A DNA stretch of 47,433 nucleotides from an uncultured virus (IMG/VR IMGVR_UViG_3300011906_000001) (taxonomy: Duplodnaviria; Heunggongvirae; Uroviricota; Caudoviricetes), in IMG/VR virus record IMGVR_UViG_3300011906_000001, positions 186,001 through 233,433 of that record; one strand, given 5' to 3'. The notes beneath the pieces were generated by a model. That model searched no databases and was not told the DNA's origin. It was given only the letters and a program-made list of their open reading frames with translations. Positions 25,017 through 30,558 of the stretch are shown piece after piece. A program made the position numbers and the translations under genes. How positions within the stretch are numbered: position 1 is the stretch's first letter; every line of letters begins with the position of its first letter.

Positions 25017-26207
25017 ATGCTAGACCATCGACTCGAACGCTTCAGTGATATGGTTTATCTTGACCGCAAGCCTGGGCTTACGCTGATTCGGCATAAGCCT
25101 TCAGGCTGCTTCTTGTTGGCCACAGGCGATGTGAGAAAAGTCATTCGAGATAGCCTTAACTATTTAAAGACAGGGCGCTATCATAACCCTAAGCTTCAAG
25201 CGCTCTTTAAACACGAGGATGAGATCGAATACGAATACAGCTACACCGATGATGCACGAGGCTTGCGAGCCACGATCATGAAGGACTACTATGGCGATCA
25301 TCGGATCTTAAACAATGCAGATTGGCCAAAATGGAATGGCGCTTATAAGCTCGTCCATAAACCCTCTGGATCGTTTTATGTAGGGGCAGTGACTGATTTG
25401 ATCAAAGCACGCTCCTATCAAGCCACCCTGCTCAGAACCGGCAAGCATAAAAGCCAAGCCTTTCAAGCCCTGTTCGATGAATCAAAATCCTTTGATGACA
25501 TTGGATGGGAATGGGCAATCTGTTCAAACATCGAAGAAGCTGAATCGGTGGCTAAGCTATGGAAGGCTGAGAATGATGAACTGTGCTTAAACAGCAAGCG
25601 GTTTCATGGAGGTGTGGGTAACCTTGGGGTGTATGTTATTAAACATGACGTTACCGGTTGTTATTATGTTGGGAGCGCGGCTAACCTTAGAGGGCGATGG
25701 TCAACCCATCAATACCACTTTAAGAATGGAACCCACGTCAATGCCCGGCTAAAAGCCCATACAAAAAAGCATGGAAACCTTTGGTCTGTTGAATACAGTC
25801 CAACAGAAACCCGCGAAGAAGCCTATCACCTAGAACAACTTCTCATTACACGCGGAAAGCGAGATCCACTGATGCTCAATCTGTCAGATAACGCTAAATC
25901 GTCGATTACATTCGTTATGAAAGACCCCAGAATCAAACGACGGGCTAAAGCATTAGCTGCTTTAGCAATGAAACGCCCCGAAGTGATTGAAAAAAGAAAT
26001 AAATCATTAAGGGACCGATGGGCTAATGATGAGACTCTTAAAGGAAGTCGTACAGGGGCTTTAAATCCATTTGCTAAAAGGATCATGGTCAATGGCGTTG
26101 TATGGGGTTCTTTGAACGATGCTATTCGAAGTGGGACTGTTAAAGAGAGTTTTCTAAGAAAAGCCCTTAAAGATCCCACCAACAAGGATGTTTATTACTT
26201 AAGTTAA
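25017..26207 (+). CDS. Free-standing GIY-YIG homing endonuclease with three tandem GIY-YIG-like modules
   Basis: The modules are GLTLIRHKPSGCFLLA, GAYKLVHKPSGSFYVG and GVYVIKHDVTGCYYVGS...LRGRW...LEQ...LN, followed by a basic C-terminal DNA-binding-like region. Confidence 0.85.
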   Translation: MLDHRLERFSDMVYLDRKPGLTLIRHKPSGCFLLATGDVRKVIRDSLNYLKTGRYHNPKLQALFKHEDEIEYEYSYTDDARGLRATIMKDYYGDHRILNNADWPKWNGAYKLVHKPSGSFYVGAVTDLIKARSYQATLLRTGKHKSQAFQALFDESKSFDDIGWEWAICSNIEEAESVAKLWKAENDELCLNSKRFHGGVGNLGVYVIKHDVTGCYYVGSAANLRGRWSTHQYHFKNGTHVNARLKAHTKKHGNLWSVEYSPTETREEAYHLEQLLITRGKRDPLMLNLSDNAKSSITFVMKDPRIKRRAKALAALAMKRPEVIEKRNKSLRDRWANDETLKGSRTGALNPFAKRIMVNGVVWGSLNDAIRSGTVKESFLRKALKDPTNKDVYYLS

Positions 26208-26361
26208 AATACCCATCTTCACGATCTTATGGATATAGTTTGCATAATAACTTATAAGGGCGCTTACTTCGAGCGATGGTTAAAGCCGCCTAAGATCGCC
26301 AACGCAGAACCGGTTGTAAAAGGAGTTTAACCTTTTATCTATGCAATCGATGGAGGCCATC

Positions 26362-26847
26362 ATGGCTGATCAAGACCAAAACGCTCAGAAGACCCAACAG
26401 CAGCAGGAAGAAGAACAGCGTCAACACGACGATCAACATCAGCGCCGACAAGAGCTAGAAGCGCAAAATGGGGATCAATCCCAACCGGATGACCACACCC
26501 AGCAGCAGGGGCAGGATAGCACTCAGAACGTCACTGAGAACCCCAATGAAGTTGAAGTGCCCAATGACCATCGTTACCATGGGGCACGTGGGGCACAAGG
26601 CAATCCTGCTCAGCCTGAAGAGGCTCCGAACCCTGATGATGTCCCGCTGGGTCAGGCTTCGGCTGCTCCACAGGGTGAAAACACCCAGATCTATTCCGAC
26701 ACGGCTACAAGCCAGGATGGTATGAACAGCAGCGATCCAGCTGAGGCGGCTAAGCGCGAAACGGATGCTCAGCGTGAAGCGCTTGGCATGGACGCTGAAG
26801 AAATGCGTGAAAAGCAAACCGAGTTTGAAAAACAGCAATCTAAATAA
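26362..26847 (+). CDS. Q/E/D-rich intrinsically disordered protein
   Basis: GGAGG SD before ATG 26362; almost no hydrophobic residues. Confidence 0.8.
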   Translation: MADQDQNAQKTQQQQEEEQRQHDDQHQRRQELEAQNGDQSQPDDHTQQQGQDSTQNVTENPNEVEVPNDHRYHGARGAQGNPAQPEEAPNPDDVPLGQASAAPQGENTQIYSDTATSQDGMNSSDPAEAAKRETDAQREALGMDAEEMREKQTEFEKQQSK

Positions 26848-26868: not shown

Positions 26869-28101
26869 ATGGCCAAGTCTTCCGTTGATGACAACACCGA
26901 AGCCTCAGCAAACAACGCTGAGCTTCAATCGCAACAGGCTAAGGATGGGTCTTCAACTGAGGGCTTGGCCCCTCAGAATGAAACTGAGGGTGCTGCTCCT
27001 GAAGAGCTGGTTGAACAAAGCCCGAATGAGACAGCGTCTTTGGTGCGTGAACAATATGGCATTCCCGATACCTGGAGCGCAGAGCAGGTTAACCAGTGGT
27101 TTGTAAAGGTCGCTGATCTGCCTGAAGGTACTGAGGTCTCTAAAGATGGGGTCTTCTTCAATGACCCGACGCGCGATAAGCGACCCTACGACACCTGGAG
27201 TTCCGAAGAGTTGTTGATGGCCCTTAAGGGCGACCTTGAGATCTCTGACAATAAACTCTCAGGCGTGATCAAGGAATACCGCAAGCGCTCTGAAGAGATT
27301 GAAGACGCCTGGAGTTTCCGTCAGGTGCTTGATTTCTATCGTGAAGGCGTTATCCCTGAGAAAACCGCATCTGGGGTTTGGGTATTGGATGTGACACGCA
27401 ATGAACGTCAACCATCCTCCTGGAGCACTCAGGAACTTGAAGCCTGGGCTAAAGGGGAAATCAAAGCAACCAGTCGGGCGCCTGATAACAAACTGGCTGT
27501 TGAGCTTAAGAATCGCCTCAAGCTTAACTCCAAGAGCAATAACCCGGCGGATGTGATTGCAGCTTATAAAGGCGCAACCCAGCGCGCCGAGCAATCCCCA
27601 GAAACGCCTCAAACGTCAGCAGTTAAAGCCACCCAACCTTCCGCTTCCTCCCCTGCTTCTCAAGAAACTGTTAAAGGGCTTACCCACATGAACCTGTCGT
27701 ACATTGACAGCACCTTAGAGCGCTACGCCGACGCTGTCAAGCCTGGCAAGCCGGTCAGTGAACAAATTGGTGCTTCTGAAACCACCAAGCTTGAAAACAT
27801 GTTCCAATACGTGATCAAGCTTGAACCTGAAGGCATGGTTGCCGGCCTTGAGCGCATTAAAGCGTTTGTGACCAAGCACCGTGAAGGACTGTTCAGTCCC
27901 TCCAATGCTCACCGCTTTGATCACATGCTGCGCAAGGAAGGCGATTTCAAAGAGCGCCACATCAACTTTGTTGAGCTGCTCATGATCTACACCGATCCGA
28001 ATAAGGACGTGCGTCAGCAATGCGATATTCGTTATCTGTTGGCCAAGCAACCTGAAGATCGTCAAGACATGCTGGTGGAATACTTCACCAAAGTGGCTTA
28101 A
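26869..28101 (+). CDS. Hypothetical protein with tandem Trp-Ser (WSxxQV/WSxxEL) repeats
   Basis: 410-aa ORF with a GAGG SD and an internal two-fold repeat. Confidence 0.85.
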   Translation: MAKSSVDDNTEASANNAELQSQQAKDGSSTEGLAPQNETEGAAPEELVEQSPNETASLVREQYGIPDTWSAEQVNQWFVKVADLPEGTEVSKDGVFFNDPTRDKRPYDTWSSEELLMALKGDLEISDNKLSGVIKEYRKRSEEIEDAWSFRQVLDFYREGVIPEKTASGVWVLDVTRNERQPSSWSTQELEAWAKGEIKATSRAPDNKLAVELKNRLKLNSKSNNPADVIAAYKGATQRAEQSPETPQTSAVKATQPSASSPASQETVKGLTHMNLSYIDSTLERYADAVKPGKPVSEQIGASETTKLENMFQYVIKLEPEGMVAGLERIKAFVTKHREGLFSPSNAHRFDHMLRKEGDFKERHINFVELLMIYTDPNKDVRQQCDIRYLLAKQPEDRQDMLVEYFTKVA

Positions 28102-28113
28102 GCGTCAAAACAG

Positions 28114-28148
28114 CATAAATCCCTTCCCTTAATTGGGAAGGGATTATG
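28114..28148. terminator. Bidirectional terminator hairpin
   Basis: CATAA-ATCCCTTCCC-TTAATT-GGGAAGGGAT-TATG. Confidence 0.85.
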
Positions 28149-28267: not shown

Positions 28268-28663
28268 TTACTCAAACAACCGATTAACCCGAGTAGTCTG
28301 ATTAAGCAGTTCAGCTAAAGCCCTGGCCTGGGAAACAGGGCCTGAGGCAAAGCAATCAGTTAATAGCATATTGTGTTCACACACTAACACACGAAGTTCA
28401 GCGAAGAGCACCTCGTTCTCGGTTACCCATTGAAGCCAGAGCGCTTTATATTCAGTATACAGATCGACTGAAAGATCAAGTGGCGGTTTACCTTTGCCGA
28501 CCCTCCAGTCATCGCTGTATACCCGATAGCCCTTAACGTCTAACTGATACGCCTGTTCTATTGTTCGGCCATCTGATAGACGCGCCACTAATGCTGAAAA
28601 CCGTTTATCACCTTTCGTGGAAACCTCAAATCCTCCTACGCCACGCCTAGCCCAGGTAAAGAC
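28268..28663 (-). CDS. Start-less ~131-aa domain (NADAR/YbiA-like motifs), probably made as a -1 frameshift extension of the DNA polymerase subunit
   Basis: The frame reads VFTWARRGVGGFEVSTKGDKRFSALVARLSDGRTIEQAYQLDVKG... There is no ATG/GTG/TTG between the in-frame TAA (28684-82) and GTG 28588. Confidence 0.7.
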   Translation of the reverse strand, partial: VFTWARRGVGGFEVSTKGDKRFSALVARLSDGRTIEQAYQLDVKGYRVYSDDWRVGKGKPPLDLSVDLYTEYKALWLQWVTENEVLFAELRVLVCEHNMLLTDCFASGPVSQARALAELLNQTTRVNRLFE

Positions 28664-28684
28664 TTTTTTGAACGATGGTCCTTA
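28635..28684 (-). other. Candidate programmed -1 frameshift signal (TAAGGA + A_AAA_AAG + hairpin)
   Basis: SD-like element at 28684-79, heptamer at 28669-63 in the polymerase frame, 6-nt spacer, imperfect hairpin at 28656-35. Confidence 0.6.
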
Positions 28685-30558
28685 TAGGCTGCTAAGAGGG
28701 CATCAAGCTTAGGCATCCCCATGATTTTCTGACAAATCTCAATCGCATTTGTCTTCCCGCCCGTTAGGTTAACTCCTATCTCACGCTTCCATCGTTCAGG
28801 AATGCCCTTGATAGCCGAGAGTTCCATTACACAAGTTTCTCGTGCAATGTTCAATATTTGCGAGACATTTGGATAAGTTGATACGATATCGAGGTCAGCC
28901 ACATGACAGTAAATTAATGACTTATAATGGGGCATCTCCTCTATGCAACGCATACCCTCTGGCGCGACCATATACGAAGGCAGCGTTATAATCCAGTCTT
29001 TATGACTAACCACCAAGGCATCGAGCTCGGTGAGCATCTGATCAGAGGTTGTACCGATGACGCAGGGTTCTTTTCGGTTCAAGTACCAAAAGTGCATGTC
29101 GTCAATCAAACGCTTAGGGTTTGAGTTAAAGTTCTTATAATCGGAGTTCTTAGAATACATCGAGATGCTAGAGGCCAGATCTTTGGTCTTCTCATCCAAC
29201 TGTTCTAGTCGAACACTGTCAACGATGTTATAAATACCGTATTCGATTTTGTAGTTGGATTGCATCTCTTCATGCCAACGCAGTCCGGTGAGGTGATCGA
29301 CTTCAGGGAACTTCAACTTACGGTAATCAACCTCAATCTCAAATTCGTCGCCTTGTGCCCAACTGGAAAAGTTATCCGTCTTGTTGAGGAGTTCTCCATT
29401 GCGATATAGGTAGATAAAGCCGCCCCGATGTTTGACCAATGCTTCATCAACGGCTTCTTTAAATTCATCCATGTCCGCTTGGGTGTTAACCACAACGGAT
29501 TTATCGTAATTGAGTTCTTTGCTCAAAATGGCATCAAGGGCATAACTGCTTTCTTTACCATCTGCCAATCGTGTGATGCGATAGGTGGTCATGGCATCAA
29601 TAGGCTGGAAGGTAGCCGGACAAGTCACCCAGTTCCAAATGTCTTCAGGGCCTTTGGTTTTATCTTTACCCGAGGCCGTGGTCATTTTAGATTGACCTTT
29701 TTTATATTCAAAGAACTTATACCGATCAGGAACGGTAGGGTCAGTGAATACATCGGCGGGGTTTATATTCTCACTGTTCAAGGCCCGCAGAATTTTGCTC
29801 ATGTCAAAGTCCATGTTCCAGAACGACCAGAAATCTGGCTTCCATTCATGAAGCTTATCGATGCACATCGTGACGATTTGAGCGGGGGTGTCGGCTATCA
29901 ACACTTCAATGGAGAGGTTTCGCTCTTTAATCAAATCCCCAATGAGTGCTTGAGCTTTTAGATGAGTCTGCTCAATCGGGTTATCAATATCAGCGACCCA
30001 GTCTTTTAAGTAAACAAGTCTCACCTGTTCCTTATGACTGACGCTCATGCAGATGATAACATCCTCACCCCCTCTAAATGAGCGCACCACGTTGGTCTCA
30101 ATATCACCGCCTGCGACCAAGTTAAGACTCATCACGTTGGGATATTTTTCATGATAGTCGTTTTTAAGCAAAGCGGATGAGGATATATCTGCCCCGTACA
30201 AATACGGACTGCGAGCCAATTGACGCAAGTAGGGGTTAGGCCCTGCTGAGAAATTGCGGGTCACCTGAGCGATGCGTTTGGTTAGTTCGAACTGCTTACA
30301 CTTGTATTCCTGAAGATTAGATAACAACTCATAATCTTTCTTTTCTTGATGGTTCTGCAAGCCTTTATGCGTGATCCAAAAAGGCCTTTCATAATCTTCT
30401 TTTAGCTTTAATCGTGGAACCTTGGTCCCATCTTTAAGGTGGATAACCTCTTTAACCACCAAACAGTCATGCTGTCCATCTTTCTGATCAAGGACATAGG
30501 TGATGTGCTTAGGTTCAATCCCAAGCACATCTTCACGTTTAATATTAGGGCGATCCAT
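28636..30558 (-). CDS. Split family B DNA polymerase, exonuclease plus motif A subunit (phiKZ gp82-like)
   Basis: ExoI DIET, ExoII WNMDFD, ExoIII YNIVD and PolB motif A DLDIVSTYPN are present. Motifs B and C are absent, consistent with the known split polymerase. Confidence 0.88.
   Translation of the reverse strand: MDRPNIKREDVLGIEPKHITYVLDQKDGQHDCLVVKEVIHLKDGTKVPRLKLKEDYERPFWITHKGLQNHQEKKDYELLSNLQEYKCKQFELTKRIAQVTRNFSAGPNPYLRQLARSPYLYGADISSSALLKNDYHEKYPNVMSLNLVAGGDIETNVVRSFRGGEDVIICMSVSHKEQVRLVYLKDWVADIDNPIEQTHLKAQALIGDLIKERNLSIEVLIADTPAQIVTMCIDKLHEWKPDFWSFWNMDFDMSKILRALNSENINPADVFTDPTVPDRYKFFEYKKGQSKMTTASGKDKTKGPEDIWNWVTCPATFQPIDAMTTYRITRLADGKESSYALDAILSKELNYDKSVVVNTQADMDEFKEAVDEALVKHRGGFIYLYRNGELLNKTDNFSSWAQGDEFEIEVDYRKLKFPEVDHLTGLRWHEEMQSNYKIEYGIYNIVDSVRLEQLDEKTKDLASSISMYSKNSDYKNFNSNPKRLIDDMHFWYLNRKEPCVIGTTSDQMLTELDALVVSHKDWIITLPSYMVAPEGMRCIEEMPHYKSLIYCHVADLDIVSTYPNVSQILNIARETCVMELSAIKGIPERWKREIGVNLTGGKTNAIEICQKIMGMPKLDALLAAYKDHRSKKSLPGLGVA

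Follow-up and report, generated by a model that had tools for sequence, protein, structure and literature searches.

Does the gene for a DNA polymerase subunit in a phiKZ-like jumbo phage also yield a longer protein, by running on into a domain that has no start codon of its own? The question arises on the minus strand of the window, by which we mean the whole stretch of 47,433 nucleotides that was analysed. The window is part of a 233-kb viral contig from a phiKZ-like jumbo phage, which is metagenome-derived and has an estimated completeness of 78%. The polymerase ORF ends here inside a second open frame, and a first-pass annotation made from the letters alone had proposed that ribosomes slip from one to the other on an A_AAA_AAG heptamer. 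The features of the junction are as follows.

28636..30558, minus strand: 0-frame ORF of 640 aa, a phiKZ gp82-type DNA polymerase subunit by its match to PHROG 3011
28679..28684, minus strand: Shine-Dalgarno-like TAAGGA, ending 9 nt 5' of the heptamer; past its TAA the -1 frame meets no stop until 28268
28663..28669, minus strand: slippery heptamer A_AAA_AAG, read TCA AAA AAG in the polymerase frame
28635..28656, minus strand: imperfect hairpin of 22 nt, CCTGGGCTAGGCGTGGCGTAGG, beginning 6 nt past the heptamer and including the polymerase stop TAG
28637-28631, minus strand: AGGAGGA, as read from the letters of the window
28268..28663, minus strand: -1 coding part entered at the heptamer, 131 aa, from GTC (28663-28661) to the stop (28270-28268)
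28595..28621, minus strand: most conserved motif of the domain family, S21 T K G24 D25 K R27 F28 S29, with invariant columns in alignment A2 and lying upstream of GTG 28588
28586..28588, minus strand: GTG, residue 32 and sole canonical start of the -1 frame

Around the junction the minus strand reads ...TAT AAG GAC CAT CGT TCA AAA AAG TCT TTA CCT GGG CTA GGC GTG GCG TAG, in which 8 sense codons separate the AAG of the heptamer from the polymerase stop TAG (28638-28636). From 28681, 12 nt 5' of the heptamer, the -1 frame runs open to its stop at 28268, and its translation begins GPSFKKVFTWARRGVGGFEVSTKGDKRFSALVARL...; mechanical ORF calling, which begins at the GTG, gives a product of 106 aa. 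The letters and coordinates of the first-pass annotation all proved correct, including the placement of A_AAA_AAG in the polymerase frame and the lack of a canonical start in the -1 frame before GTG 28588. The arithmetic of its two predicted products also holds, with 640 aa in the 0 frame and 632 + 131 = 763 aa after a slip.

The 640-aa ORF matches the PHROG 3011 profile, 'DNA polymerase', with an E-value of 1.2e-217 (ORF residues 5-631 on profile positions 3-570 of 576), and is homologous to PHIKZ082, gene 082 of phiKZ. Its last 220 residues show 63-70% identity to nine relatives. The ORF carries exonuclease motifs plus a DLDIVSTYPN stretch, which we take to resemble motif A of the family B polymerases. 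The polymerase of the phiKZ group is described by Iyer et al. 2021 (PMC7824862) as a divergent family B enzyme with its 3'-5' exonuclease on a separate protein. In the table of a phiKZ antisense knock-down screen (PMC12571901) the entry 'DNA polymerase' stands for 050 as well as for 082, and the phiKZ homolog 082 scored in that screen.

The same stretch of the polymerase is interrupted in some relatives. In PhiPA3 (L003 1930-2270) the polymerase-subunit gene is split by ~340 nt between ADLD and IVSTYPN, and the annotation ends there; distant homologs, several of them in the protein collection, likewise break off at ...DLDV (P0319, P0333, P0334, P0351, P0364 and P0373). This suggests that intron-like insertions are common at this site. 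In the window itself, at a distance of 2.4 kb from the polymerase gene, Pfam recognises a GIY-YIG catalytic domain (E 3.6e-11) in a plus-strand ORF of 396 aa (25017-26207), which also matches PHROG 314, 'homing endonuclease'. Between this endonuclease-like gene and a gene for a virion structural protein sits a further plus-strand ORF (26341-26847) of 168 aa, of low complexity and with a very high content of Q, E, D and N.

Judged by its homologs and by its predicted structure, the start-less stretch of the -1 frame is coding. The -1 translation gives a full-length match to PHROG 9995 that begins at F8 (E 1e-43, profile positions 2-122 of 124). The window domain was aligned with 79 stand-alone homologs of 119-147 aa, picked among 120 listed, and in 56 of the 80 sequences of this alignment (A2) the conserved aromatic comes after no more than 1-5 residues, usually in the form M-F-T-W or M-Y-T-W; the window reads V-F-T-W, with GTC in place of the ATG of the stand-alone homologs. 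As the first-pass annotation had anticipated for a coding stretch, homologs align through the start-less TWARR...EVSTKGDKRFSA, and the stand-alone ones begin there, not at the equivalent of GTG 28588. Fourteen columns of A2 are invariant and six of these (S21, G24, D25, R27, F28 and S29) precede GTG 28588; the window copy retains every invariant family residue. The AlphaFold2 model of the domain has a mean pLDDT of 94.6, and the blocks covering residues 11-30 have means of 97-98. With the invariant motif and this part of the model both lying upstream of it, a product initiated at GTG 28588 would lack an integral, and the most conserved, part of the fold.

To compare the junction among relatives, we collected 12 annotated phage records and 25 viral contigs, the latter found with an alignment of polymerase C-termini, and classified the junctions by script. 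One of the 12 records, Cygsa01, has the domain without an adjoining polymerase. The other 36 loci, together with the window, gave 29 distinct junction sequences, 8 loci being duplicates; these 29 stem from a few clades and are not independent events. They fall into three groups.

Group B, 8 junctions (window, Noxifer and six contigs), -1 relation: A_AAA_AAG, 8-32 codons before the polymerase stop
Group A, 12 junctions (phiKZ, PhiPA3, 201phi2-1, PS119XW, Phabio, Viktualia and others), -1 relation: C_CCA_AAG (11) or G_GGA_AAG (1)
Group C, 9 junctions (D6, RVTF4, Psa21 and six contigs), +1 relation: no heptamer

All 20 junctions with a -1 relation, which represent about two clades, carry an X_XXA_AAG in the polymerase frame inside the open overlap (AAAAAAG in 8, CCCAAAG in 11, GGGAAAG in 1), so that the heptamer and -1 relation of the first-pass annotation are retained in relatives; the heptamer is found in none of the 9 junctions with a +1 relation. 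Away from the junction, an in-frame X_XXA_AAG occurs about 7 times in ~18,300 polymerase codons from the 29 loci. In 15 of the 20 -1 junctions, a scan that begins far upstream and runs to codon +21 of the domain meets no ATG, GTG or TTG, and group B as a whole has no start codon in this region. The group A heptamer lies at, or one codon from, the polymerase stop. In five of the 12 junctions in that group an ATG or GTG coincides with or adjoins the first residue of the domain, the other 7 having ATA, GTA, ACT, ACA or GTT at that residue. Past the heptamer, the window's clade keeps the -1 frame open, while its 0-frame tail shows no conservation and varies in length between 8 and 32 codons.

The first base of the heptamer is constrained at the nucleotide level, being the wobble base of a codon whose amino acid varies. 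In group B, the codon holding the first base of the heptamer is TCA, GCA (four times), GGA (twice) or CTA, with A in the wobble position in 8/8. In group A, the codon before CCA is AAC (four times), CCC, TCC (twice), GCC, CTC or GTC (twice), with C in the wobble position in 11/11 while the amino acid varies among Asn, Pro, Ser, Ala, Leu and Val; the junction of L022, for instance, reads GTC CCA AAG TAA. The sole junction with GGA (L029, GGGAAAG) has CTG as the preceding codon and thus G as its wobble base. Background third-position frequencies in the polymerase ORFs are 0.19 for A and 0.26 for C. As a reading of these sequences, selection on the protein does not account for the wobble-base pattern, whereas a P-site tRNA that re-pairs in the -1 frame does.

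The domain itself is, going by substitution patterns, under purifying selection, with dN/dS at ~0.16. The median is 0.16 for the start-less lineages of group B, where 8 of 28 pairs were computable, and 0.15 for start-less group A (6 of 15 pairs); the remaining pairs are saturated at synonymous sites, with the frame nonetheless intact.

Group C stands apart. The codon at the first position of the domain is GTG in four junctions, TTG in one, CTG in two, ACG in one and CGG in one, a mix which argues that the start is not conserved there either, and the junction could work by its own initiation or by a +1/-2 recoding event. With ATG or GTG present in five group A junctions, and with group C having no heptamer and GTG or TTG in 5/9, the domain is probably made on its own in some relatives. 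All nine group C loci (L005, L007, L010, L024, L026, L028, L030, L031 and L032) have an invariant GAA AAG AAG ~20-30 nt before the polymerase stop, despite a variable 5' flank, which in the frame of the domain is read AAA AGA AGx.

The first-pass annotation had also pointed to elements on either side of the heptamer, and these fared less evenly. The hairpin is present and folds, at -12.9 kcal/mol over 50 nt, but no better than shuffled sequence (z -0.39, with 65 of 200 shuffles equally good). In the same test Noxifer gave a z of +0.65, with no counterpart hairpin, and phiKZ -1.13, so that no conserved 3' structure was found when window, Noxifer and phiKZ were folded against shuffles. TAAGGA does end 9 nt upstream of the heptamer, but it is absent from the other seven group B junctions, which makes its role as a stimulator uncertain. 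A stop codon abutting a heptamer may itself promote slipping, the arrangement known as 'shifty stops', and the sister clade (group A) has its 0-frame stop directly behind the heptamer.

Transcription across the junction bears on all of these readings, and one further feature belongs here.

28118..28145, minus strand: terminator-like hairpin with an 11-bp stem and a T-rich tail, 3' of the domain, the sole strong one

There is no terminator-like hairpin between polymerase and domain. For phiKZ, the time-course table in the RNA-seq supplement (PMC12571901 supplementary file 4) shows PHIKZ082 and the downstream stub PHIKZ_p28 sharing a time course. PHIKZ_p28 also figures in the RNA heat map of a Grad-seq study (PMC8545117, file 5). 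With the only strong terminator after the domain and with these matching phiKZ time courses, polymerase and domain are one transcription unit. The hairpin at 28118-28145 sits where the minus-strand polymerase/domain unit converges with a plus-strand gene (26869-28101) and has T-rich tails; from its sequence it is likely a two-way terminator. No tRNA genes were found in the window.

How, then, could the domain be made? One answer is that it is a separate protein, begun at a non-canonical start or by termination-reinitiation after the polymerase ORF, the heptamer being incidental. Several relatives lend themselves to this: a TAATG stop-start overlap is present in PhiPA3 and L021, GTG stands at the first residue of the domain in 201phi2-1 and Viktualia and one codon before it in PS119XW, and the third clade has GTG (four), TTG (one) or CTG (two) at that position. 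A stand-alone gene for the domain is known in N4-like phages and Sphingomonas phage PAU, and the window has both AGGAGGA (28637-28631) and TAAGGA (28684-28679). In the window itself, however, the codon that corresponds to this first position is GTC, ATG, GTG and TTG are all absent before residue 32, and any start behind AGGAGGA would remove conserved residues W10 to E19. The codons of relatives at that position (ATA, GTA, ACT, ACA, GTT, AGC, CAA, TCC, AAA, GGC) make the pattern of an internal residue. Reinitiation is ill-suited as well, the polymerase stop in the window's clade lying 8-32 codons past the heptamer and sometimes 58 nt inside the domain, and neither the wobble constraint on the heptamer nor the switch from CCC to GGG is explained by a separate start. 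Such initiation fits the five group A junctions, and perhaps group C, but not the window nor 14 other junctions, and for the window we consider it improbable.

Slippage might instead occur in transcription, with RNA polymerase stuttering on the six A and adding one, such that some transcripts encode the fusion in frame. All eight junctions of the window's clade do have A6 then G, where one extra A would bring the domain into frame, yet in the sister clade CCCAAAG or GGGAAAG, neither of them a long homopolymer, goes with the same relation of frames, and a wobble base that matches the next two bases (X_XXY) is a requirement of tRNA re-pairing, not of stuttering. Six A are also short for transcriptional slippage, and we regard this route as very unlikely. 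Least credible of all is that nothing is made, the -1 frame being either a gene that used to be separate and is now decaying or the product of an assembly error in the homopolymer. It is true that the frame has no start codon, that the contig is metagenome-derived, and that the sole public DNA run found, which holds a small share and has no RNA counterpart listed, has one contig on this stretch, covering 28300-28498 and stopping short of the heptamer. Selection and independent assemblies contradict both forms of this explanation: the frame is intact in 29/29 distinct junctions, which come from a few clades, dN/dS is ~0.16, the window copy retains all the invariant family residues, and the same frame relation recurs in cultured, independently sequenced phages, namely Noxifer, phiKZ and dozens of near-identical isolates.

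Programmed -1 frameshifting, with products of 640 and 763 aa, is in our judgement the best reading of these sequences, and one that we hold to be very probable. Of the features expected of such a site, the window has an X_XXY_YYZ heptamer in the 0 frame and an open -1 frame that encodes a conserved, selected and start-less protein, and relatives keep both the heptamer and the frame relation, down to the wobble base; as a stimulatory element, the hairpin and TAAGGA are uncertain candidates. Most ribosomes would decode TCA AAA AAG without slipping and stop 8 codons on, giving the 640-aa protein. A minority would slip back one base on A_AAA_AAG, two Lys tRNAs re-pairing on AAA AAA, and would read on through GTC TTT ACC TGG... 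to give a 763-aa protein, in which the polymerase subunit would be joined directly to a 125-residue domain without a start codon of its own. The slip itself and the existence of two polymerase isoforms are what we infer from these comparisons. In the phiKZ mass-spectrometry table for early infection (PMC12571901 supplementary file 8), gp82 is represented by one peptide and the stub has no entry.

What the added domain is can be said best at the level of fold. The model is NADAR/YbiA-like in its predicted fold, which makes the domain a candidate member of the NADAR superfamily. The top PDB match in Foldseek is E. coli YbiA, with an E-value of 1.3, and the predicted fold has the helical core and two small flanking sheets by which the YbiA-like fold is defined (PMC11125620). 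Neither the domain nor any of the 80 A2 sequences matches Pfam, PF08719 included, a hmmsearch with the family profile against PDB sequences returned no NADAR, hhalign against an alignment of 50 YbiA homologs gave a non-significant probability of 0.05%, and NCBIfam holds no match for the window's domain.

Compared by eye with the YbiA consensus, the order of motifs is FSAL for FSNF and DGR..T-I-E-Q-A-Y-Q..K for DGK..T-S-E-H-Y-F-Q..K. Within E-x-x-Y-Q the Glu, E42, never varies; K50 follows at a spacing of 8 with a conservation of at least 90%, the equivalence of both to the NADAR residues being judged by eye. NADARs have a catalytic Glu with a Lys 7 residues later (E43/K50 in PnNADAR, E88/K95 in E. 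coli C7, E36/K43 in T4 AdfN), and they strip ADP-ribose from guanine in DNA, as T4 AdfN does against DarT1 (PMC11543638 and PMC11825919). An invariant D109 stands directly past the last predicted strand of the domain (106-108); NADARs have a conserved charged Glu, Asp or His in the last strand. Against the superfamily (DarG1 antitoxin, E. coli YbiA, T4 AdfN/gp30.3; PMC11543638, PMC11125620 and PMC11825919), the domain is shorter, at ~125 aa versus 150-220, has neither a PF08719 match nor profile-profile similarity, and has a Glu-Lys spacing of 8, not 7.

Two other identities were considered and set aside. DUF4326 (PF14216) was rejected, the Pfam model mapping beside the domain in P0020, P0010, P0043, P0007 and P0012; in P0020, for instance, DUF4326 occupies residues 141-226 and the PHROG 9995 domain residues 3-126, as neighbours. 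The EF-hand-type leads from the protein atlas all scored below 0.9 and were treated as chance. By comparison with PHROG 9995 and with the proteins named A1S_2505, the window domain is a full-length PHROG 9995 member, differing in that typical members are stand-alone proteins of 119-147 aa with their own ATG, which the window copy lacks. The NCBI name 'A1S_2505 family phage non-structural protein' is carried by one relative, P0019.

The domain occurs once in the genome to which the window belongs, and that genome contains no canonical NADAR gene. Elsewhere the domain is a stand-alone gene, as in the N4-like phages and Sphingomonas phage PAU, or part of a longer protein, of which 72 were found. 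Its fusion partners include RecD/Pif1-type helicases, RNase H, AlkB-like oxygenases, DprA-like/SLOG, KH and phosphatase domains. In many metagenomic proteins (P0008, P0016, P0028 and others) the domain is N-terminally fused to fragments of T7-type RNA polymerase (PF00940). Taken on these sequence matches, the domain is a widespread accessory module of nucleic-acid enzymes, without a Pfam family of its own.

The first-pass annotation had suggested looking for in-frame polymerase fusions in relatives, and one exists: P0044 (698 aa) holds PHROG 3011 at residues 29-541 and PHROG 9995 at 560-677 in one frame. Such fusion is rare, P0044 being the only case when the clade of its polymerase was sampled by the 150 best representatives, and no viral-contig loci related to P0044 as a single protein were found. 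An alignment of the P0044 clade, made up of more distant jumbo-phage polymerases, returned 80 loci, of which 4 have the domain within 2.5 kb, and these 4 domain-bearing loci are contigs of the window's clade that had been counted before. As these sequence searches have it, polymerase and domain are linked only in the Pseudomonas phiKZ-like clade and, independently, in one fusion.

The expectation that standard gene callers would truncate or miss the domain ORF is borne out in annotated records: the two frames are joined in 0/13 phiKZ-like GenBank/RefSeq records examined, the domain is unannotated in HUST_1 and Wadjak 2, and it is cut to a stub or fragments in phiKZ (38 aa), Noxifer, D6, RVTF4, PS119XW, Phabio, Psa21, Viktualia and MKR2. 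Full-length annotation of the domain is seen only where a start exists, in PhiPA3 and 201phi2-1, and for the window's own record the public protein collection holds the 106-aa form (P0075). Among the papers searched on phiKZ, PHIKZ082, jumbo phages and Chimalliviridae, we found none that describes the frameshift.

As for function, the domain would most likely be a replication-borne NADAR-like hydrolase that would remove ADP-ribose or a similar adduct from nucleic-acid bases, and a counter to DarT-type host defence would be a reasonable example of such a role. We also put forward, tentatively, a more specific idea: that the frameshift fixes a small share of replication complexes with a NADAR-like de-ADP-ribosylase, that DarT-modified DNA in the phage nucleus is repaired at the fork by the polymerase carrying it, and that selection acts on the tether and not on the free enzyme. 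On this fork-repair idea, the union of polymerase and domain by several routes would argue for selection on the tether itself. These routes would be slippage on A_AAA_AAG, C_CCA_AAG or G_GGA_AAG, in-frame fusion, and possibly a +1/-2 event at the group C GAAAAGAAG.

The nucleus-forming phiKZ-like phages are model systems and therapy candidates, and their replication proteins are poorly understood. Should programmed frameshifting hold true, one of their core replication genes yields a second, longer protein that is missing from current annotations, and dozens of genomes carry a conserved enzyme-like domain that their annotations reduce to a stub or fragments, or leave out. DNA replication would then be physically coupled to a NADAR-like activity, with a link to counter-defence against ADP-ribosylating toxins, and the junctions would form a natural series for how slippery sites, start codons and fusions replace one another in evolution.

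Two known systems invite comparison with the proposed frameshift. The dnaX gene of E. coli makes its tau and gamma isoforms by a -1 frameshift on A_AAA_AAG, with a Shine-Dalgarno-like element ~10 nt upstream. The window shares with it the heptamer, the Lys tRNAs, a place in the gene of a replicative DNA polymerase subunit, and a Shine-Dalgarno-like element upstream (TAAGGA, 9 nt), and would likewise yield two isoforms from one gene. It differs in that the shifted dnaX product is the shorter one, whereas that of the window would be longer by a whole enzyme-like domain, and in that strong 5' and 3' stimulators are defined for dnaX, whereas the hairpin of the window does no better than shuffles and its Shine-Dalgarno-like element is not conserved. 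The tail-assembly chaperones G and GT of phage lambda come from a frameshift on G_GGA_AAG. Like the shift proposed here, it is a conserved phage -1 shift near the end of an ORF, placing a C-terminal extension on a minority of the product, and its heptamers are likewise interchangeable across relatives, GGGAAAG itself occurring in L029. Unlike the lambda case, the window's junction lies in a replication gene and not in one for morphogenesis, and the part that it would add folds independently and exists elsewhere as a stand-alone gene and in many other fusions.
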